A stretch of 64,000 nt of DNA from Neophaeotheca triangularis. Taxonomy: Eukaryota. A model generated the notes under the pieces. That model saw only the letters and a program-made list of their open reading frames with translations, did not search any database and had not been told where the DNA came from. Shown here one piece after another: positions 43,743 to 57,181 of this stretch. The position numbers and the translations under genes are program-made. Positions within the stretch are counted from its first letter, which is position 1, and each line of letters starts with the position of its first letter. Location: the NCBI GenBank assembly GCA_054600435.1, contig BAAIJX010000058.1, positions 62,001 to 126,000 on the forward strand, given 5' to 3'.

Positions 43743-45224
43743 CTACTTCCTCGCAGTGGGATTCCACGAAGAGTATTTGGTCAACTCGCGCGCGTGCCCG
43801 TACAAGCCCATGAAAGCCATGATGACTAAGTACGGAATGTAGCAGACGACGAAACCCAGCATGCTTTTGAAACTCGTAAACTCGCTCCGCACACGTTCGG
43901 TAAAGTACAGAGTCGCTATCAAGGCGGCTATAGTGGCGAACAAGAAGAATTGGGCCATTGGGTAGCGGAACCAGATCAGATGCACGAGCTCGGAGACGTT
44001 GGAAGGCCATTCCATGATGATGAAGGAGGCCATGAGGCACGTGTGCTGGCTGACGAAGTAGAAACTCAGCTCGCGGACGAAGAGGAGGGAGACGAGACCG
44101 GCGCGCTCGGATTTGCTGCGGTGGCCTTGTGGTGGGTTCCGCCAGATGAGCGGGAAGTGCTTGATGGAGGCTTGGGTCCAGCCTTGGGTCCAGCGCATGC
44201 GTTGTTTCCAGAATGCCATGGCGCTGGTCGGTGCAAGCTCGTAGCTGAGGACGTTCATGTCGTGGATGGCCCGGTTGCCTTCGGCGTAGGCGCGCAGAGC
44301 GGAGTCGATGTCTTCGGTGAGCATGTGGCCGTGCATTTTGAGCCCGCGGACGACTTCGGATCGCCACCAGCCGTTGCTGCCGCAGAAGAGACCGAAGCCG
44401 TACAGACGGGTGCGACCCGGGTGGGCGATTGCGTAGATCTTGTCAAACTCAATCGCCACCATTTTAGGGAGAAAGCCCTCATGGGTGTTGTAGACGACGC
44501 AGCGGCCTTGGACAATGTCCGCGGTGCCTTTTTCCGCTAGGAAGCGCTCAGCGGCCCAGCGGACGTTGTGAGGGTGCGGCAGGTGGTCGGTGTCGAAGAT
44601 GCCGGTGTAGTCTGCGCCGGTCGGAGGGAGGGAGAAGAAGTGGTTGAGGTTGTCGGCTTTGGATTTGGAGTTGGGCACCTTGACCACGTTGAGTTGGGGG
44701 TATTGATCGTGGAGTTCCCGCATGTGAGTCTCTAGTGGTTCGATGGGGTGAGGGGTGTTGTAGACCATGTTGATGCGGAGCTTGTCCGATGGGTAGGCGA
44801 TTTCCTCGAGAGCGTACATGATTTGGGATATGACAATGTCTTGCTCGTTGGGGAGGTAGGCCACATATACCAGGTCCATGACGGGGAGTTTGTCGTTGTC
44901 AGAGGGGAATTTTCCACCATTCTCCTCGACTTTGATGGCGGCCTTTTTCGCATTCCGGACCGGTGTCATACCCAGGAAGGATTCGATGGCAGTGCAGAGC
45001 GCAATGTAGAGGTTAACAATCATGTAGAAGAAGTAGAAGACCTCGATGGCCTCGCCGGAGCACATGCAGAAGATTGCCGTGCAGACCACCCAGTAGCAGG
45101 CTACGAGCACAAAAGGCGTCCAGTCCATCAACCAGTCCGAAAAAGCCATCCAGTGGGTTTTCATCGTTCGGACTGTTTTGCGGAACAGGCCCTGATCTTG
45201 GTCTTCGCTGAATCGGGAAGCCAT
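43743..45224 (-). CDS. Processive family-2 glycosyltransferase (CesA-like fold), intronless, 493 aa
   Basis: Two N-terminal TMs; VAYLPNE, SKADNLN, FDTDH (DxD), LTEDID, QRMRW (QxxRW); about three C-terminal TMs. Confidence 0.92.
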   Translation of the reverse strand: MASRFSEDQDQGLFRKTVRTMKTHWMAFSDWLMDWTPFVLVACYWVVCTAIFCMCSGEAIEVFYFFYMIVNLYIALCTAIESFLGMTPVRNAKKAAIKVEENGGKFPSDNDKLPVMDLVYVAYLPNEQDIVISQIMYALEEIAYPSDKLRINMVYNTPHPIEPLETHMRELHDQYPQLNVVKVPNSKSKADNLNHFFSLPPTGADYTGIFDTDHLPHPHNVRWAAERFLAEKGTADIVQGRCVVYNTHEGFLPKMVAIEFDKIYAIAHPGRTRLYGFGLFCGSNGWWRSEVVRGLKMHGHMLTEDIDSALRAYAEGNRAIHDMNVLSYELAPTSAMAFWKQRMRWTQGWTQASIKHFPLIWRNPPQGHRSKSERAGLVSLLFVRELSFYFVSQHTCLMASFIIMEWPSNVSELVHLIWFRYPMAQFFLFATIAALIATLYFTERVRSEFTSFKSMLGFVVCYIPYLVIMAFMGLYGHARELTKYSSWNPTARK

Positions 45225-47182
45225 TTTGGAGGATGTGAGGTTATGTCTGCCTGAGCCAGCTCGGGTAGGTTGTTCTCGTTGTTGATGATAAAAGAGTGTT
45301 GCGATACGAGAAGGGTATACGGCCTTGCGACAATAAATGCGATTGCGATTGCAACGGGTATGTAACGATCGAGAGCTGCGATTGCAGTTGGTATTGAACG
45401 ATGGACAGTGACTGAGACCACAGGCGCTCAGATAAGTGAATGACTACTGCGAGGGCAGTTGGAAGAATGAGTGCTGACTGCGAAAGCAGACTATAGGGGG
45501 ACAAACGAGGGCAATGAATGGAGAGAGGGCTAGGTTTAGGAAGAGAAGCACCTTCACTTACATGCAGTTGTTGAGAGAGTGAGCTGGTTGATCAATCAAT
45601 ACAGTAGTAATGCCCGACACAGATCAACGTGCCGGGCCAGAAGAAGCGGCACACCATTCTAGCGTTTCCGTCTCGAGTCTCGACATGGGGGGTCGCGATA
45701 ATCAGGCGTTGCGTTGAGGCTGATGAATAGTGATGCCCTCCGAAAGCAGGGTCCTTTCCGGCTTTTGCAGCTCTCCCTAAAGGCAGGTAGCAGGGATGAT
45801 GGGGGTTCCAGCGTCGGCTTCTCTTTCAGGAAGATCAGAGGGGCGATTGACGTGCGTTGGGCAGCCTCTGCGTCGAGTCTCAACGGGGATTCTGTCTGAA
45901 GTCGCCGAAAACGGTTACCACTGCCTCGAGGCTTCTCAGAAGCTTGCACCATGTGGGTTTCTTCACAATATCGAGAAGGTTTGCTGCTGTGGATATGCAT
46001 TCGTATCTCTTTAAGAGGTGAGCGGTTTACTACTGGTCCTAATTCTTTCGCTTCGGTTAGAAAAGAATGGCTATCAGGCTGTGGGTACCTAGGACAGGCA
46101 TTGATCCAGGATGGAATTTTTCTTTCCGTGAAATCTGACGGCGCTAGGATATGTCACATTTTCGACAAGACGTCTTGGAGAAAGCACGGAATGCTAGGGC
46201 CAGCAGCTCAGCCGGCAGATCACTACTAGCTCGTCATTTTATTCTTCTTCTTTCCGTAATGCGTAAGAAATGCTGAAGAATGCTGAGTTGCTGACGCGGG
46301 CCAATTCGAAACAGTAATAAGGACGGGAAGAGATGCGCATTCGGTCGGACATTGCCGTTGCTGCATACATTATGATGTGCGCCACACGCAGCACTGAGCA
46401 GTATGATTACGATCATGACGACGAAATGCCGGTTTCATCGTTGCCGCTGTGGCGGGAGACTTTCCATTCAGTTCGCCTGGAACACGGAAGCGTTGAGGCA
46501 GAATAAGGTAAGCCTCGTGGGCCGCAGATGGGGCGGATCTTAGGTGACGAGTCGTGCGGGTAAGTCGTGACTGATGAGGCGAGGAGGTGATGTTAGTGGG
46601 TATCTCCACGGATAGTACCCGGACCTAATAGGAAGAGTGGTAGGTGGTGAAACAAGCAGCATCCCCGTCGTTCAATGAAAACGTGGTTGTGAAGAAGTGG
46701 GTCAGAGGTAACAAGCTGCCGGGGAGCGTTGTTCCACACACAGTCAAAACCTTGAAAATTGAAGCCTTTCAAGCTTGACTAGTACTATACTACTTTGGCA
46801 ACTTTCTGCAAGTCTTGGCTAGTCAGCTCCCACCATGCGAATGCTAATACTAGTCATCTCCACCGAGCCGCCCACGTCGCTTTCCATGTTCTTCGTGTTT
46901 CAAACATGGTGGAATGTCCGAAAAGTCAAAAGGTAGTGCCGGCGGGAGTTACGAGTATGGCCCTAATCTTGTTGATCCGCCCTCCGCGCGCAATGGGGTG
47001 AGGAGGTGGTGGGTAGTGGGTACTGCCATACATTGTTGTCGTGTGATTTCACTACTACTGATGTATCGCGGCAAAGGCACGGGAACATCCACTTTGTGGT
47101 CGACCATGTAACAGCATTCGCTCCGCTTCCTTCTCGAAGACTCACCAAAGCATCTCTCTAACGCGAGCCTACTCCAACCATC

Positions 47183-48558
47183 ATGGGTGCGGCTTCACTA
47201 CCATCTCAAGTCCAGAGCTATCTTGCTCCAGCAAGATGGCAAGCCGATTCTAAACCGGAGCAACACTCTCATCTCTACGGTCTTCGAGCCATCTTGACAT
47301 TTCTGGGTCTACTTTGGGTCTTCTTCGAGACCTTCATCCCAACCGTCGTCTCAAACAACACCGATGGACCAACCCATCAGAAAGTCGTCCGCTATATCTT
47401 TTCACCGCTTCTCTGGGACATCAGCCTAATCACCTCCTTCTTCTTCGTCCTCAGCGGTCGCGCAATCTGCATTCGTTTCCTAAAAGATTCGAGTCCCAGC
47501 ACCTACGCCGGGACCATCATCCGCAGACTCATCCGCCTTCCCATAGTCCTCACCATCGCCTGCGCAATTGCATTCGGCATCTTGGGTGGAACAGGAGTCT
47601 CTTACATTGCGCGCTTCAAGGAAGTCCTCCCCAATGACTCCATCGCAGTGCCCGACCTGCCTGACCGCGCCCTCACCGGTCTGAACTCCATGTTCGATCT
47701 CTTCTGGGTCGTCCGCAACTACTACGACCAAGCCGCCAACGACTTCTGGCCCACGCACACGCTCTGGAATCTCTCGCTAATCTACCAACAAAGCTGGACC
47801 ATTTACTTTTTAATGGTGATTCTTCCCTTCACTCGCGCCACCTGGCACTGGCCTTTTTTGGGACTCTTCGCGCTGGGCTCGTTCTGGATGAATACCTGGG
47901 GCTGGTACGACGCTTTCGCGCTGTTGGTGGCCGACTACGCCATCAACCCGACTTTGCGACCACGTTTCGAGCAAGGCTTGGAGGTCAAGCAGGACTGGCA
48001 CATCCACTGGGCTGCTATCGGTGGCATCATGACGGTAGCCGGCACTGCCATGAAGTACGTCTGGACTGCTCTTCCGCAATACGTCGACAAGGAGCTTGTC
48101 CTGCACCCTTGGGTCGACTTGACGGAAAACTCGAGTTTGAGGGAGATTGCCGATGCCGATCCTTACCCACGAGTGGACAACTTCCTCGTCATCTTCGGCA
48201 TCCTACTCATTGTCGAGACGATTCCCGTGATTCAGAAATTGCTGTCTGCGAGATGGCTAGTAGAGATTGGAAAACGGTCGTTGAGTATGCACTACCTTTA
48301 CAACCACTAATGCAAAAGTCCGCAATTCACTAACTCGGTTTAGGTCTCTTCATCGCTCAATCCATCATCTTCTGGACCGCTGGCATCAAGATGTATCTAC
48401 ATCTCTCAGACAGCGGTACCGACAAGGCTCTCGCCAACTTTGCCGTCTTTGTCGTTGCTACCGTCACAACGGTTGTTTTTGGGGAGGTCTACTATCGAGT
48501 GATTGATCTCCCATCTCAATGGCTAGCGAACAAGGGGTACGAGTGGCTTTTGACTTGA
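47183..48558 (+). CDS. Acyltransferase-3 (OafA-like) multi-pass membrane protein, 2 exons
   Basis: LYGLRAI, FFFVLSG, IIRRLIRL, HTLWNL, IGKRSLS|LFIAQ (intron 48285-48343), FGEVYYRVIDLPS. Confidence 0.85.
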
Positions 48559-51027
48559 GTAGGACTAACCCTACCCAGCCGGTCACATTTATCGACGGGC
48601 GTTTTCATTTGTTTTGGTGAAAATGTTCAGTCTCCATAGCATTCTCACAGTTAAACATTACCTTGCCACACAGCCCATCCCGTCTTAGCACTCATCAAGT
48701 CTCAACACCATTCGAGCCCGCCAGCCTCAAATGACCACCTCGACGACAAACAAACAACCCCTGCACCACAAGCCCAAAAATCTCTTCACCCAACCCACGA
48801 CCCTCGCTCGCTTCAACTATCCAAACCCCACCCGACAAAATACCACATCTCCCTCACAGTCACGCATCCCGTTTCCGCAGCGCAGACGACTCAACGGAAA
48901 ATCAATCAACATTAATGATAAATCACTACTACCCACTACCCACTACCCAATACTCTACTCTACTCTACTCTAACCCGCATAGGCAGGGCAGGGTAACTAC
49001 CGCACCACGGAAAGTCAAAGAAAAGGAGACCCACAGCAAGTACTCCTAGTTTAGCTACAGTCTACCCTAGTAGCAAGGTATGTAGGTACTATAGGTAGAT
49101 TAGGTATCATTCATTGTAGACATCCATGTGCTGCCGAAGATAAGTTAGGTGCTATGTATTCATCGTATAATAAGCTTCCGTAGGCAAGCTTCCCGCGCCC
49201 GCTTGCCTTGTGTGTTGAGCTTTCGAACTCTAATCGGGGTTTGTACAGTCGGGAGGTGAGGTTGAGTTTGTTGTGATGAAACGCACGCACGCGCGGGATG
49301 TTGGACGGTGCGTGTGTCGTGTCATGTCGTGGACTCGTGGACTCGTGGTCGACCAAGGTAGGTAGCGTAGGGTAGGGTACCTTGGGTGTCGTGTCGTTCG
49401 TCGCAAGCAAGGGTACCAAAGAATGTACATGCATACCTTACACATGATTACAGGTAGGTAGGTTAGGTACCTTAGCTATTATTGCGTGTGACGGACGGCA
49501 AAGCGCCACCCGCTGACAAAAAGTGCCGTTGCGAGCCTTCTTCTCCCGCTTTTGTAGGCTTGCATCAGACGAGGCCTCTAATTGTTCACGATACACGATG
49601 ACGATGCCTCAGGTAGAGAGGCAGTACTCGGGTGGAATTGCCTCTATAGCTCAGCTGCGGCGTTTCTGCACGAATCTTCACACTTGCATCGTCGCTTGCG
49701 ACCGAAGCTCTGGGACTGGGAAATCTCGCCAATAATGGAATTATCGGGGTATCCAATTATTGTTGATAGCGCGGCAGTCGTCAGGTACGCGCCCCACGCA
49801 CGCGACTCACGAGGCTTTCCGCTTCTAACCCGCCCCGGGAAAGGATTCTGAGCCAGTGTTTTACTGCAGAAACTCTATCATATCCGCGTAGAAGGCAGAG
49901 GTATCTCAAAGTACTTGTGACCCACAAGCCACGCCGCCGTTCCGCGCCATCAAGCAAGAAGAAGAAAACGGGACCTATAATAATACCATAGGTAGTAATC
50001 TGAAGCTGACGATGATGATGAACGGACAAAGCACGCGATTACATCTCCACACCCTACCCAGACCCACGTCGTCTTTCCTTTCATCCACATCTGACAAGCC
50101 TTGCGGTCCTCAACCAAGCTCGCCAACCTCGCCTCACCATTCCACGCCTTCCTTTCTCCCCCCCCCGTCTGTCTGTCTCAACGCCCGCCGGGCCTGAAGC
50201 TTAACATGACAAGACAATAAAAGACACCTGCATACATGTACTTGTACACAGGTCGGGTCTAGCGTTTCGCTCTCACCCGCCAATGCGGTGGGTCCAAGAG
50301 GAATTCTAGCGTTTGGGAAGAAGAAGAATGCCGACTTTATCTCTCGCCTTGGTTTGCTGGTTCCAACTTCCGCAGGGATCATCGGCCGTTGAACAATACC
50401 CTTGTTTCTCTCTCACTCTTTTTTGGCGCCGTCGTTGTCGTCGTCGCTTTTGAAACCGGACCGAGCGAGGCGCCGGTAGTGGTGGGTAGGAGGTCTGGGA
50501 CGGGCATCTTTCACCCGGAGCGGCATTGTTGCGCGGCTTGACTAGTCGTGGGCTTTTTTCGATTGAAGCGTATGCGTTCATTTTGCAGAGGGGGTTTGGG
50601 GCTGGGGCGGTTGGCTTTGGCTGGTGCTGCGGTTGGTGCTTTGCATGTGATGAGAGAAATGTCCGAGTTGATCTTCGGGGTAGGTGGTAGGTGATGAGGG
50701 ACGGGTGGGTTCTTGGGCATTCGTTGCGGAAGCCTTTGTCTCGTTCCAGTCCAGCTCCCATGTCCTCGCTCTCGTGATAATCGTCTTTTGCGATTTCCGT
50801 TTGGGTTCAGTTCTGGTCTTTGCCTTGTTCAATCATTACCTTCTTTTCCTTTCCTTCGCGTTGATCTTCTAATCCGAGACGAGACGACAGGATCATTAGG
50901 TTATCTTCTCTGTCACTGTTTACAATATTCCCTCTTGAGTCTGAGAGTCTTTCTTTGTTCGCTGTCCTCGAAAAGGACGTCTTAATGCCATTGCCGTTCC
51001 TTACCATTCGCAATTGATCAATCAATC

Positions 51028-54000
51028 ATGGTACCCAACTGGGTCTCCCTGACCACAGCCATCGTCGGCCTCCTCTCGACAACGACGATGGCAGCCTCTC
51101 CCCCTTCTGGCTGTGACTGTGGTTACCAAGATCCCAACACCGAACAAGTCTACACCGACGCTCTAATCGTCTACTTCAACGAAACCGACACCATCGACCC
51201 TGAAATCTTCAAACTCCAAGACTTTGCCTCAAGCAAGCAACAGGGCTACAAGTGAGGACCTTACAACACACAGTCGATCCAAAACCTCCGCACTAACACC
51301 CCCCCGCCAGCTCCGTCTACAAGCTCGGCGCCAAACCAAAAAATGCCCAAATCACCAACGACACTTACATGCGACCGCGAACGCAATCACTCCAACTGCA
51401 AGCCGACCCCCCGGCCGACGACCACACCGTCTACGGCGGCAGCCTCAAATCCCAGCGTCAAGACCTGCAATACGGCACTTTCCGCGCAGGCCTGCGGGGC
51501 GCATCTCAATGGACCGGCGGCACCGCCCTCTCCTTCATGCTGCGCTACAACGCCTCGGAAGCGCTGAACATGGACGTCATGAACATGGCGGAAAACGGCA
51601 GCGACGCTCGCGTCTCTTACACCGTCAATGGCGAATGGCCCGACGTCGACAAGACCGTCACCAATTACACGGAATTGCAGGCCGCCGGCATCGATCCCTG
51701 GACCGAGTACCTCGACCTGCGCATGGATTGGAACGAGACCGACTTTGCCGCGTGGGTGGGTGGCGAGTTGGAGCGGCACGTCTCCAAAGGTGACCGCACC
51801 GTTCCCATGGCCGGGCTGCCCATGTTCCTGCGCACTTGGTCGACGGGCGATTCCTATTACATGGCCGGGCCGCCCGGCGTTAATGGATCCCGCGGGCACG
51901 TGCTGTATGTGCGGTCGTTTTTCAACTCGTCAGCCATGACGAGCGGCGAGCATGATGAGTTCGACAAGAGGTGCGGCGGTGCTGATTTGTGCTCCGTGGA
52001 GGACGTGAGTCTGCGTGGCGCGACTGCATACTCGGCCAAAGCCACCGAGCGTTGGGAGCTCGACCTCCACAAGGGCGAGATTGTTCACAATGCCGGCATC
52101 GTCGCGGCGTGCTGTAGCTCTTTTGGCATTTTTGCGCTGATCAATGTCTTTTTCCGCCGCACGCCTTGGGGGGCTTTGGGGGACTTGTTCAAGAAGCCCG
52201 GCAAAGGTAGAAGGAGCAAGTCGAGAACGCCGGACCACGACAACGACACGGCGAGCGATGTTGGTATTTCGGCGGGGAACAAGGGCGGCTTCAACAAATC
52301 CGTGACTTCAATCAACATGGGCAAAGCCGGGAACTCGGAGTCGACGACTTCGCTCCCAATGAAAAAGGCCGGGTACTCCGAGTCGGTCGACTCGATGGCA
52401 TGGGGCGGTGGCCAGACTTCCGGCACGCAGACGCCGCGGTCGGGCATGCAGACACCGCTCCCGGCCTACGAAGCCGGACCGCCAGCCTTCACTTCCCGCA
52501 ACGCCAGCATGGCAAGTCTGCCCCACATGGCCTCGAATCAATCGCTGCGGAACCCCTTTTCCGATCCCGACGCCATCACGCCGATGAACGAAAAGGACAT
52601 CACGGACCGGGACAGCAGGCAATCCATCGAGACGCCCAAGATGCACGACCAGCCGGGTCTTGGCAAGCGGCCTCTGTCCAAGGTCGAGGAGATTCAGACG
52701 GCCGCCGAACCCATGTCGGCGGCACCGTTGACGACGACGGAGAAGGGTAAAGATGTCGCCGTGAGCACTGCCGCCATGGAAGATAAGCCTGCTGCTTCCG
52801 CCATCAAACCAAACTCCGCCGCCCCTGCGAAAAAGCGTATTGACTACTTGGCTGGAATCGTCGCCATAGCGTGTTTGGGAGTGACGTTGCATCACTTTTG
52901 CCAGACATTCTGGCCGTGGGTGACTCAAGGTGAGGCCAAATCCCCCCTTTAACAATAAAACTGTGGTGACTTTGAGCTAACTTCTGGCAAGGCTATGGTC
53001 CAGGACAACACTACGAAGCCGAACGATGGTTCCAAATCTTCCTCGGCAGCTACGTGCTCACACAATTCTGGATCGGTCTCTTCTTCCTGACGGCAACACG
53101 CTTCCTGTGCGCAAACTTTCTCAAAAATGGTAATCTTGAGGATATTGCCAAGAAAGAACTACGCCGGGCTCCCCGACTCTTCGTTCCGATTTTGATAGTG
53201 TCGTTGCTGGAGTACTTTTTACTGGAGATGGGCGTGACGGGCAGCTTGGAATATTTGGCTTCCGTCTCGTGGGCGACATGGCCTTATGTTGAACCACAGC
53301 CCAACTTTGGCGTTTGGATGAATAATATGGTTGAGTTGGCTTACTTGATGCCCAACGCCATTCCGGAGGTTGTCACGCATTACTGCATCGGTGTGCTGTG
53401 GACGGTGCCAGTGCAGTTGCAGTTCACGTATGTGATCCTCACTGGTTCCGTGTTGATTCGTGGTATCAAGGACTGGAGGAAGCGAGCAGCGTTCTTCGCC
53501 CTGGCCATCGTAACGGGCTGGTACGCAAGAGTGAGTTTTGAAAACCTTCTCCCTCCCTTCCCAGCGAGAGCGAAACTAACCAAATTTTTTCCTTCCAGAG
53601 CTGGTCGTCAATCCACTGGTGCGGCCTTGTCCTCGCCGATCTCGAAATCACCTACAAATGGCGCACCTACCTAGGCAAGCACCCAGCAGTCTTCTACACA
53701 GTCTGCAGCTTCGCCTTCATCGGTGCCGCCGGCGCCCCCATCCTCACAATCTTCAACCAAACCTGGTCCTTCAACACGGCCGAAAACAGCATCCACCCGG
53801 ACTTTGATACGGGGAAACCGATAGCCGAACTCGGCGCCGTGTATCCAGGCTACAACGAACCCACCCTCGCCATCATGATCTTCAGCATCGGCCTGCAGAT
53901 GCTCGTCGAACTCACGTCATCACTACAATGGTTCCTCTCGCTCAAACCCATCCTCTGGCTGCACCCGCACATCATGACCATCTACCTAACCCACGGCTTC

Positions 54001-54294
54001 GTGATGTGGAGCTGGGGCGCCTGGGTGTGCGTGCAATTGGCCGAGACGGGCAATGTGCCGTATTGGGCGAATCTGATCATCACGCTCGTGACGACGTATG
54101 CGTGGATTTTCATCCTGGCGCGAGTTTTGACGCCTTTGATGGAGTTTCCCACGCAGGCTTTTATGCGCAATTTGGACCGTTGGACTAGGGATGAGCCCTT
54201 GCCGAAGAGGATGACGATTGCGCCTTTTGGGAAGGAGTTGGTTGTTAAGAGGATGGGTGGGCCGGAGGATGAGAAGGAGAAGGGGGTGGCGTGA
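51028..54294 (+). CDS. Signal peptide + GH16-like ectodomain + TM + disordered linker + Acyltransferase-3 domain (~1025 aa, 4 exons)
   Basis: Exons 51028-51251, 51311-52929, 52992-53530, 53599-54294 join in frame (3078 nt). GCDCGY, DLQYGTFRAG, LRMDWNE, RTWSTGD..AGPP (fungal GH16 pattern); then RIDYLAG..LHHF, ELRRAPRL, GVLWTVPVQ, IYLTHG (AT3 pattern). Confidence 0.85.
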
Positions 54295-54947
54295 GGTTAG
54301 TTTTGGGAGATGGGTTTGCTTTCGCTTTGAGAGTTGGATGCTCTGACACATAGATTATGCGCACTGGATATCACTTCTACCTAAAACTCATGCGGAGATT
54401 CTGTTTTTTGCTCTTACATTTGGACACTGAAGCTGTAGATGACCCTTATGCCCCTGAGAGATGTTCAAGCGGTGGTACTTGGTTTGTTGACCGGGGTGCG
54501 ATAGCAGAGTGTCGGTTGCAGACTTCGTTGTCCCGGAACCCCGAAGCGTCATGGTATCATATGATGGGTCTAGGCGTGGAGTACGAGCCTGGTTGTTGTA
54601 CCGATCGTGAATCTGAGGTGAAGTTGAAGCTGGCCTCATTCACGGTTAAAAGTAGTGCACGTGCTACAACGGCTAGAAGCGGAATTGCTTCCGAATCCGA
54701 GCCGAGCTCCTTCTCGCGCGCGTCACGCTCCCGTTGCGACACGTCCCCCTCAGCTCAGGTTGTTCGCGATAATCGATAATCCCATCTTTCCTTCTACACC
54801 AATTGCCTTGCCCCCCACCTTGCTGTCGCGACACGTCTAGCCCTCGGGAGACTACCCGTCGTATTCCTCTACCCAGCCCCCGGCCGACTTCTCACGACAC
54901 AACACCCTCCACTACTGCCGCCCGCGACACCGCCTTGGCCGCCGACC

Positions 54948-57181
54948 ATGGCGCGACAACCCATCTATTCGGCGACATATTCCAATGTGCGTATATGCCT
55001 GCGCATCTCTTGAACGTCCTTGCACGTGCAATGTAACGTTAAAGCTCCCGAACTGACGCAAACAACCACAGGTCCCCGTCTACGAATTCAACATCGAGGG
55101 CAACCATGTGATGCGCCGCCGTTCCGACGACTGGATCAATGCCACTCACATCCTAAAAGTCGCCGCCTATGACAAGCCCGCTCGCACGAGGATTCTGGAA
55201 AGGGAGGTACAAAAGGGGACGCATGAGAAGGTGCAGGGCGGTTACGGGAAATATCAAGGTTGGTGAATGGTTGTTTGCGTCAACATCAACAACACTATAC
55301 TGATGCACCTCAGGGACGTGGATACCGCTTGAAGAAGGCCGCGTTCTCGCCGATCGCAACAAGGTCTTGGATAAATTACTTCCCATCTTCGACTTCGTGC
55401 CCGGCGATCGCAGTCCCCCTCCGGCCCCCAAACATGCCACGGCTTCCAGCAGACCTCGCGCTCCTAGGGTTGCTGGAGTGAAGCGCAAAGCAGGCAACAA
55501 GGCGGGAAGGAATGGAGGTCTTGCCGCCGGCGTCTACGGCAACGTACCAGACTACGAGCAGATGGATATCCACGGGCGTGAGTCGGAGACGCCAGACAAC
55601 GTCACGGTCGCCAGCGAATCAATCTACATGGACGACTACGACGAAGCGCAGTACAGCGGACAGGGCAAGAGGCGGAGGCTGGATCATGAGGGCGACAGCC
55701 AATCGGCGAGACAAGTGGCGCATCATCTCTGGTCTGAAGAGCTACTCGACTATTTCTGCCTTGAAGACACGCCTCCCGGAACGATGAACACCATGCCCCA
55801 GCCACCGCCAAACGTCAACATCAACGCGCCCATCGACGAAAAAGGCCACACCGCTTTACATTGGGCGGCCGCCATGGGAGACATTGAGCTTGTCAAGACA
55901 CTCATCCGCGACTACCAAGCAAAGATTGAAATTGTGACCACCAACGGCCAATCTCCGCTCATGCGATCGGTCATGTTCACAAATTGCTTCGACAAGCAAA
56001 ACATGGAGCGGGTGGCAGCACTGCTCATTCGCACGGTCAACATGCAAGACTTTGACGGTCAGACAGTCTTTCACCACATCGTCCAAGCCGCTGCGGATAA
56101 GAAGAAGCACGCCTGCGCTCGCTACTACATCGACAGCATCCTAAATAAGATGCAGGAAATGCTACCACCGGACCAGATTGAAAGCATCCTCAACGCCCAA
56201 GACCAAGATGGCAACACCGCCATCACCATAGCAGCCCGTCACGGCGCACGGAAGTGCATCCGCAGCCTGCTCGGCCGCCACGCCCGCGTCGACATCACTA
56301 ACAAAGTCGGCGAAACCGCTGACCAACTCATGCGCGATCTCCGCCTCAACCGCCTCCAAACCGACCGAACCGCCCGCCGTCAAGAATCCTCCTCCCCCTT
56401 CGCCACCGCCCACGACGGCGCCTTCGACGACAACAGCATCCCGTTCAACCCACTCATCCCCCACAACGCCCTCTCTACCCCACCCCCACCGCAACCATTC
56501 AAAACCCCTTCCGCTCTAAATCTAACAACGCAAATCCTCCCCCAACTCCTAACCAAAGGTCGCACCCTCGCCGCCACCCTCGACGAACAAGTACAAACCG
56601 CCCGCGCCGACCTTGACGATCTCGAACGCCTAACCGCCCACCGCAAAGCCGAAATCGCGCACTTACAATCCCAAGCTGCCGAGCTCGAAAAAGAACCCAT
56701 AGATACCCACCACGACAACGGCCACGCTTCCGCTACCGACCCCAACACCGCTGTCCCCGAATACAACGCCCTCTGCGCCTCCATCGACAATTTGCAAGCC
56801 GAAATCGCAGATCTCCTCATCATCGAACAAGAAAACACCCTCTCCGCCGCTCTCGACCAATCCCCATCCACTTCCACCCCTCCCAACGACGAAAACAACA
56901 GCAACACCATCTCAACCACCGAGTTGATCCACTCAGCCCAGCACCTAGTGCAATTACAACTCCGTCGGAAGGAATTGGCGACTTTTGTCGGTCAACGCAT
57001 GGCTGAGAGTGGGTTCGATCCAAAGTCGGAGGAGTATCGTCGTTTGATTACTGGAGCTCTTGGTGTGAGGGAGGAGGATGTCGCCGTGCTTTTGCCAGAG
57101 ATTTGTCGGGAATTGGAGGAGGGGGTCGAAGGTGGGGCTAGGTTGGGTGCGGGTGCGAGTGTGGATGGGGGTTTGGAGTAG
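54948..57181 (+). CDS. MBP1: APSES/KilA-N + ankyrin G1/S transcription factor (Mbp1/Res-like), 3 exons
   Basis: [14 protein letters not shown]...[17 protein letters not shown]...RTRILERE...[17 protein letters not shown]; ankyrin [12 protein letters not shown] and [10 protein letters not shown]-terminal coiled coil. Confidence 0.9.

Follow-up and report, generated by a model that had tools for sequence, protein, structure and literature searches.

A conserved trio of synthase, acyltransferase-fold and GH16-fold/AT3 fusion genes in Neophaeotheca triangularis, a candidate module for an acylated extracellular glycan of the Pezizomycotina

The black yeast Neophaeotheca triangularis carries, within a 64,000-nucleotide stretch of contig BAAIJX010000058.1 (GenBank assembly GCA_054600435.1, positions 62,001 to 126,000 of the forward strand; hereafter the window), a run of three genes at window positions 43743-54294: a putative membrane GT2 synthase (G1), a multi-pass membrane protein of predicted AT3-type fold (G2), and a fusion of a GH16-fold domain to an AT3 domain (G3). 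An earlier note, made from the sequence of the window, had described these genes as a candidate acylated-polysaccharide locus set among unrelated housekeeping genes, with G1 and G2 transcribed divergently from a shared upstream region of about 2 kb. Gene models based upon stop-to-stop open reading frames (ORFs) and a reading of splice sites place all three genes where they had been reported, with 1,958 bp between the start codons of G1 and G2, and resolve the locus as follows:

43743..45224, minus strand: G1, putative processive membrane GT2 synthase; single exon, 493 aa, stop codon included in the coordinates.
45225..47182: G1-G2 intergenic region between the divergent start codons; presumed shared promoter region.
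47183..48284 and 48344..48558, plus strand: G2, multi-pass membrane protein of predicted AT3/TmAT fold; two exons, 438 aa.
51028..51251, 51311..52929, 52992..53530 and 53599..54294, plus strand: G3, GH16-fold/AT3 fusion; four exons, 1025 aa.
51097..52061, plus strand: GH16-fold ectodomain of G3; approximate residues 24-325, intron 1 inside.
52835..54294, plus strand: AT3 domain of G3; residues about 584-1025, introns 2 and 3 inside.

The models of G2 and G3 are identical, letter for letter, to the deposited hypothetical proteins P0121 and P0341. The deposited G1 protein (P0001, 440 aa) begins at residue 54 of the model given here and drops positions 45066-45224 (residues 1-53), and with them the first predicted transmembrane (TM) helix; the longer model is preferred because the additional N-terminus holds that helix together with W35, T36 and P37, which are nearly invariant in homologues. 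Within the G1-G2 intergenic region, ORF clustering revealed no ORF that is conserved in related loci.

Adjacency of the three genes extends well beyond N. triangularis. Metagenome contigs scanned with the G1 alignment yielded 80 loci, which were then searched with G2 and with both halves of G3: both partners were found at 33 loci, G3 only at 9, G2 only at 8, and neither at 30, all 30 partner-free loci having flanks of 3.5 kb or less. Where a locus is informative, meaning that it extends at least 7.5 kb upstream and at least 3.6 kb downstream of the GT2 gene, all three genes are present without exception (19/19, amounting to fewer than 19 independent observations since several loci are near-duplicates). 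The order found in the window, G3(-) G2(-) <-> G1(+), recurs at 8 loci whose nearest GT2s are Mycosphaerellales-, Aureobasidium- and Coniosporium-like; the order G3(-) <-> G1(+) G2(+) occurs at 23 loci with nearest GT2s from the Pleosporales, Leotiomycetes, Lecanoromycetes or Eurotiales; and the order G2(-) <-> G1(+) G3(+) occurs at 2 loci with Delphinella-like GT2s. Each metagenome locus was given the taxon label of whichever of 30 named proteins matched it best in tblastn, and on this basis the loci presumably derive from Dothideo-, Leotio-, Lecanoro- and Eurotiomycetes. The GT2s of the linked lineages are about 48-75% identical to G1 of the window, and the existence of three gene orders among 33 loci indicates that adjacency has survived rearrangement.

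Named genomes agree with the metagenome loci: consecutive locus tags are found in Meristemomyces (LTR85_010641/42/43), Hortaea (KC330_g6247/48), Zasmidium (PRZ48_008549/50), Coniosporium (H2199_002363/64) and Acrodontium (R9X50_00642700/800). Homologues of G1 also occur in Aureobasidium pullulans and Paecilomyces variotii. The earlier note had held that orthologues unlinked in other fungi would speak against a shared system, an objection which fails because the genes are linked at all informative loci and carry consecutive locus tags. Furthermore, ORF clustering of 37 loci of at least 12 kb, the window included, found the G1 family and the G2/G3 family to be the only families common to all 37; no fourth conserved gene, whether deacetylase, hydrolase or regulator, was found among these loci, and no other family occurred at more than 12 of them, antisense shadows aside. 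A protein search with G2 returned 70 proteins, all from Capnodiales or Mycosphaerellales, a range which understates that of the family, since tblastn located G2 homologues of 29-37% identity beside the GT2 gene in other lineages. Together these observations support treating the trio as a single conserved unit.

Second copies of individual members were also encountered. In Acrodontium, G1 is represented by two paralogues (R9X50_00642700 and R9X50_00480000), Teratosphaeria nubilosa likewise carries two G1 genes, and Zasmidium cellare carries two copies of G2 (PRZ48_008549 and PRZ48_014316).

The flanking ORFs encode copper-fist, Methyltransf_16 (lysine-methyltransferase), syntaxin, ankyrin and dynactin-5 domains, and since these domains are unrelated to the trio, the setting among unrelated genes is as had been described. 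The large ORF directly downstream of G3 (55304-57181, plus strand) encodes ankyrin repeats (Ank_2, E 4.4e-15) and is not kept beside the trio elsewhere.

The assignment of G1 as a processive GT2 bearing DxD, TED and QxxRW motifs holds upon closer analysis. Two GT2 families of Pfam match above their cut-offs of 27 bits (PF13632, Glyco_trans_2_3, 58.8 bits, E 8.7e-16; PF13641, 41.8 bits, E 1.7e-10), and the protein displays KADNLN at residue 189, FDTDH at 210 (D211-T-D213), LFCGS at 279, T303-E-D305 and Q341-R-M-R-W345. DxD, TED and QxxRW are invariant or nearly so among 27 homologues, with E304, D305, Q341, R342, R344 and W345 invariant throughout, in a family whose identity between classes is only about 50%. 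When the family profile was compared with the PDB, BcsA chains were the only matches (7lby, 9.4e-12; 4hg6, 5.3e-10), and the profile aligns FDCDH, FCGS, TED and QRxRW with E. coli BcsA. Among NCBIfam models the best match is PgaC_IcaA (TIGR03937; 53 bits against a cut-off of 422.3, E 2.6e-14), and CelA (TIGR03030) scores 46.5 bits against a cut-off of 699.1 (E 1.4e-12); with scores so far under the cut-offs, G1 lies outside both equivalogs. Several sources label its homologues 'N-acetylglucosaminyltransferase-like protein'. Hydropathy places TM helices at about residues 38-56, 62-80, 423-441 and 456-474, so that the catalytic domain is preceded by two helices and followed by at least two. The motifs thus mark G1 as a processive GT2 of BcsA-like type. 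The canonical D,D,D,QxxRW pattern is broken where LDDGGR of E. coli BcsA, containing the UDP-binding DDG, aligns with VYNTP of G1 (residues 154-158, about 44751-44765, minus strand): Y155-N156 replaces the DDG aspartates, and the donor may therefore be other than a standard UDP-sugar, or may be bound in a different mode.

G3 is composed, in order, of a signal peptide, a GH16-fold ectodomain (about residues 25-325), a TM anchor (about 330-358), a disordered linker (about 359-583) and the AT3 domain. An AlphaFold model built on 32 homologues has a predicted local distance difference test score (pLDDT) of about 90 for the N-domain (residues 30-325), about 85 for the AT3 domain and below 50 for residues 373-579. 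Foldseek searches with the modelled N-domain returned 391 PDB matches at E<=0.001, lichenases and laminarinases among them (3o5s, E 2.4e-10, TMt 0.77; 1mac, TMt 0.77; 1gbg), and the best PDB profile match is the A. fumigatus transglycosylase Crf1 (6ibu, E 1.2e-5), a Fibrobacter lichenase also being matched. The description of G3 as a GH16-like/AT3 fusion is thereby upheld for the AT3 domain by Pfam and for the GH16 domain by fold, with one qualification, namely that the window protein (P0341) has no match to the GH16 family PF00722 at E<=0.1, whereas 9 of 11 G3-family proteins scanned do match it at 23-36 bits (cut-off 22). The full fusion is also carried by the Talaromyces protein P0356.

What is not upheld is a hydrolytic role for this domain. 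Where GH16 enzymes have the catalytic motif ExDx(x)E, the window protein has N161-M-D163-V-M-N166, with Asn in place of the nucleophile Glu, and across 33 homologues Glu occupies the first position in 16, Asp the second in 25, and Asn the bulged third, acid/base position in all 33. Comparison with 'EVDIE' of the Fibrobacter lichenase served as a check on the register, and in the non-bulged register of that motif Leu or Met comes to lie at the acid/base position. The GH16 domain is accordingly best regarded as a predicted pseudo-enzyme, a glycan-binding head being more likely than a hydrolase. Its signal peptide, eight N-x-S/T sequons and four conserved cysteines (Cys29/31/296/302) place it outside the cell. 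After the TM anchor and the linker, the AT3 domain would begin from the cytosolic side, as is usual for AT3 domains, so that the predicted topology agrees with a head that faces outwards. The linker between the two (about 52161-52834), which is presumably cytosolic, contains an [LPV]PxY motif (LPAY at residue 458) that is present in 17 of 32 homologues. Such motifs resemble the PY motifs bound by the WW domains of Rsp5/Nedd4, and may point to endocytic control.

The AT3 domain of G3 is matched by Pfam Acyl_transf_3 (PF01757) at 45.4 bits against a gathering cut-off of 31 (E 7.3e-12; residues 593-969, profile positions 9-326 of 326). AT3 proteins are described as moving acyl groups from acyl-CoA to extracytoplasmic glycans, with motifs R/K-X10-H, FFXISG and RXXR, and in OafA both H25 and R14 are essential; the His of TM helix 1 (TMH1) is one of four residues reported as invariant across 31 characterised AT3 acetyltransferases (PMC7448272). 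G3 displays RIDYLAG at 584, H603 and RRAPR at 672, and among 32 sequences H603, the equivalent of OafA H25, is nearly invariant while R673 and R676 of RXXR, the motif of loop 2-3, are invariant. The position expected to hold the TMH1 Arg is V592 in the register given by hhalign and A589 in the motif register; R584, close by, is nearly invariant.

G2 merits the AT3 label only in part. None of 20 family members matches PF01757 at E<=1, and weak Pfam matches are to DUF418 (6/20, best 3.5e-4) and Cas1_AcylT (1/20), both of which belong to the AT3 clan. In favour of the label, hhalign aligns the G2 family with the AT3 domain of G3 over 400 columns (probability 99.06%, E 1.7e-18), with H603 sitting 11 residues past the G3 position that is aligned with R35 of G2. 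The G2 model (pLDDT 77) has no Foldseek match at E<=0.001. A wide structure search with VIA matched it to HGSNAT (8jkv, Z 16.1, root-mean-square deviation 4.8 over 292 aligned residues; 8tu9, Z 15.0) and to GWT1 (8xik, Z 10.4), the next row having Z 5.4; HGSNAT and GWT1 are the members with solved structures in the TmAT superfamily, which is said to include AT3 (PMC12423673). On the alignment and the model, therefore, G2 is a paralogue of the G3 AT3 domain with a predicted TmAT fold. Its motifs are YGLR (R35), FFFVLSG at 86 and RRLIR at 114, and its invariant residues comprise the TMH1 Arg R35, F86, F87, L90 and S91, and R115 and R118 of RxxR. No invariant His occurs in TMH1 in 20 sequences, the position 11 residues beyond R35 (V46) being Val or Ile; among 38 metagenome homologues, likewise, none has His at R+11, and two (loci L068 and L080, both Leotiomycete-like) have one at R+14. 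Acyltransferase activity of G2 is not assured given the missing His. A complex prediction for G1 with G2, in which alignments were not used, scored 0.00 and has no bearing on binding.

Set side by side, the two AT3-fold proteins have R/K-X10-H motifs that are degenerate in complementary ways: G2 keeps the Arg without the His (R35/V46), and G3 the His without the Arg (V592/H603).

RNA evidence for the locus comes from two runs that cover small shares of the region; no contig covers G1, and no weight attaches to such gaps in coverage. In a marine metatranscriptome contig of 99+% identity, position 48284 is followed directly by 48344, the skipped letters running GT..AG, which confirms the 59-nt intron of G2 and shows that G2 is transcribed. 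A contig from a second run, of uncertain kind (X2), matches 53165-54381, and with it the 3' part of G3, at an identity of about 98%. It retains intron 3 and may derive either from DNA or, as cDNA, from a transcript that a related strain had not spliced. Adapter-like loose letters stand at both of its ends.

We regard it as somewhat probable that the trio constitutes one conserved Pezizomycotina biosynthetic module for an extracellular, probably O-acylated, beta-linked glycan. In such a module the cytosolic GT-A domain of G1 would polymerise a nucleotide-sugar and push the growing chain through its own transmembrane channel. The sugar and linkage would, judging from the BcsA-like FDxDH, FCGS and QRxRW motifs and from the glucanase-like head of G3, be those of a glucan. 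The AT3 pore of G3 would, by the mechanism of its family, move acyl groups supplied by acyl-CoA in the cytosol to the outside of the membrane, a capacity suggested by the retention of H603 and of the RxxR loop (R673, R676). Outside the membrane and held by its own anchor, the GH16-fold head might then keep the growing chain where the AT3 pore opens, and so do what SGNH does in the AT3-SGNH enzymes of bacteria. G2, in turn, could be an additional acyltransferase that works by a different mechanism, for which the His-less GWT1 is a precedent, or could assist G3 or G1 without any catalysis of its own. Of the interpretation that had first been offered, then, the conserved linked module stands, while the hydrolase role of the GH16 member and the parallel to synthase, modifier and hydrolase sets do not.

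A bolder version seems doubtful to us. It would make the trio the missing machinery for an orphan acylated fungal beta-glucan, with the dead GH16 lectin head and the AT3 pore acting as a eukaryotic 'reader-writer', and with G2 (Arg) and G3 (His) supplying complementary half-sites of one heteromeric acyl-transfer pore. Candidate orphan glucans are pustulan, a beta-1,6-glucan of lichen fungi that is O-acetylated in part, and the malonyl-glucans made by Talaromyces.

Several points weigh against a glycan-acylating module. The O-acylated product, the beta-glycan nature of the polymer and co-expression of the genes are inferred, and the RNA evidence is confined to G2 and to an unspliced 3' piece of G3 whose nature is uncertain. 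Neither AT3-fold protein has a complete R/K-X10-H motif, Val or Ile standing in place of the TMH1 His in G2 and Val or Ala in place of the TMH1 Arg in G3. Y155-N156 is invariant in the G1 family at the position of the BcsA DDG aspartates. The glycan-binding role of the GH16-like domain is deduced from loss of catalytic residues only. Lastly, the 19 informative loci are not all independent, near-identical contigs such as L012/L013 and L037/L048/L074 having come from related samples.

These departures from canonical motifs give some room to an unlikely reading in which the polymer carries no acyl groups and the AT3-fold proteins serve the synthase as subunits for structure, export or regulation, as was first proposed for IcaC. 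The TMH1 His is missing from G2 of the window and, at R+11, from all 38 metagenome homologues, the TMH1 Arg is missing from G3, and whether IcaC is a transporter or an O-succinyltransferase is described as still unresolved (PMC9558356). Yet in G3 the canonical His position is almost invariably still occupied by His, and RxxR is invariant, GWT1 is reported to be active as an acyltransferase without the His (PMC12423673), and the portions of the literature consulted hold no AT3-family member acting solely as a channel. The pairing of a GT2 (NodC) with an AT3 protein (NodX) for Nod factors is the model for another, improbable reading, in which G1 makes a short oligosaccharide or glycolipid signal that the AT3 proteins decorate. 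The 'N-acetylglucosaminyltransferase-like' label of its homologues and the small architecture of G1, with 2 + 2-3 TM helices in 493 aa, would suit such a product; however, no NodC model is among the NCBIfam matches at E<=0.1, the PDB sequence matches are BcsA chains only, with FCGS aligned, and a GH16-fold head fits a polymeric glucan better.

That head could itself be active, as a Crh-like transglycosylase cross-linking the new polymer into the wall, and the profile match to Crf1 (6ibu, E 1.2e-5) is in keeping with this, as is the presence in homologues of Glu at the nucleophile position (16/33) and of Asp at the second position (25/33). We nonetheless hold this to be very unlikely, for the acid/base position is Asn in 33/33 homologues in the bulged register, or Leu/Met in the regular register, and G3 of the window has Asn at the nucleophile position. 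Finally, adjacency might be a historical accident or reflect shared chromatin, the genes having no function in common. Retention of the trio in three orders at all 19 informative loci, among GT2s only about 48-75% identical to that of the window, together with the lack of any other conserved neighbour, makes coincidence scarcely credible.

With these alternatives weighed, the acylated-glycan module remains the reading we favour, and the trio, whose members have stayed linked in moulds and lichen fungi of many classes, probably makes an acylated surface polysaccharide. The earlier note knew of no characterisation of such a system, and a literature search likewise recovered no description of the fungal trio, of a GH16-AT3 architecture or of six orthologue accessions, many subscription papers lying outside the search. 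As far as literature searches show, the pseudo-GH16-AT3 fusion is an undescribed domain architecture, while synthase-dependent exopolysaccharide systems with an AT3 modifier are already known in bacteria, IcaA/IcaC being one example. Apart from chitin, beta-1,3-glucan, Tft1 and Cps1, many polysaccharides of the fungal wall and matrix have, to our knowledge, no identified synthase. AT3 proteins are described as hardly studied in eukaryotes (PMC9558356). Carriers of the trio include plant pathogens, black yeasts, lichen fungi and Eurotiales, and a compact set of genes linked in every informative locus offers a testable route towards a new surface polymer and the way in which it is acylated. The fusion, moreover, bears on how AT3-only proteins find their acceptor.

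Characterised systems that come close to the trio include Tft1/CelA, which makes mixed-linkage glucan, and Cps1/ZtGT2, all of them membrane GT2s that have been linked to polysaccharides of the wall or matrix in filamentous ascomycetes (PMC4344333; bioRxiv 10.64898/2026.09.17.752320; PMC5653360). On the accessions, G1 is a different gene from both. Identity with ZtGT2/Cps1 was rejected because both accession and chromosome differ: the Cps1 orthologue ZtGT2 is given as XP_003857553.1 on Zymoseptoria tritici chromosome 1, with one reported paralogue, model 38873 (PMC5653360), and the member of the G1 cluster in Z. tritici is MYCGRDRAFT_35809/XP_003855770.1 on a 3.86-Mb contig. Identity with Tft1/CelA was rejected on differing Pyrenophora teres accessions, the orthologue used by Backes et al. 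being EFQ94510.1 (PMC7140844) and the G1 relative EFQ96338.1, a comparison made by accession and not by direct alignment with the Tft1 sequence. Pore residues of AfTFT1 are numbered up to 551, as against 493 aa for the whole of G1; AfTFT1 is said to share 29.5% identity with barley CSLF6 over 237 residues, and the Tft1 lineage to be 70-96% identical across classes (bioRxiv 10.64898/2026.09.17.752320). The G1 profile has no match to CSLF6 (8DQK) in the PDB at E<=0.01. AfTFT1 has reportedly been expressed in Komagataella phaffii. An AT3 partner is not mentioned for either system in the portions of the cited accounts available.

In bacteria, staphylococcal icaADBC resembles the trio in placing a processive GT2 (IcaA) beside an AT3 protein (IcaC) thought to O-acylate the exported polymer (PMC9558356), and PgaC_IcaA is the best, albeit far sub-threshold, NCBIfam match of G1. 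The trio differs in that no conserved counterparts of IcaD or IcaB occur at its loci, the motifs of G1 align with BcsA and not with a GlcNAc synthase, and two AT3-fold genes are present, one fused to a GH16-fold head, in a eukaryotic host. Since no deacetylase or hydrolase partner is conserved, the parallel that had been drawn to operons of synthase, modifier and hydrolase is not a true one. BcsA supplies the only PDB sequence matches of G1, with FDCDH, FCGS, TED and QRxRW aligned, but has about 730-890 aa to the 493 of G1, which is without a PilZ domain, has Y155-N156 in place of the DDG aspartates, and belongs to a trio without a BcsB-like partner.

For G2, the closest likeness is to HGSNAT and GWT1 of the TmAT superfamily, in the fold of its model and, for GWT1, in the shared lack of a catalytic His (PMC12423673), although G2 has no significant sequence match to those families. 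The head of G3 shares the beta-jelly-roll fold of GH16 lichenases, laminarinases and Crh transglycosylases (3o5s, 1gbg, 1mac), but has lost the catalytic ExDx(x)E and is membrane-tethered and fused to AT3. As a whole, G3 invites comparison with the AT3-SGNH enzymes OafA, OafB and OatA, in which AT3 is likewise fused to an extracytoplasmic domain acting on the acceptor glycan (PMC7448272); in OafA-type enzymes this SGNH domain is C-terminal and follows an 11th helix. In G3, by contrast, the additional domain is N-terminal, of GH16 fold, catalytically degenerate and provided with its own TM anchor, and it is joined to the AT3 domain by a disordered, presumably cytosolic, linker of ~225 aa.

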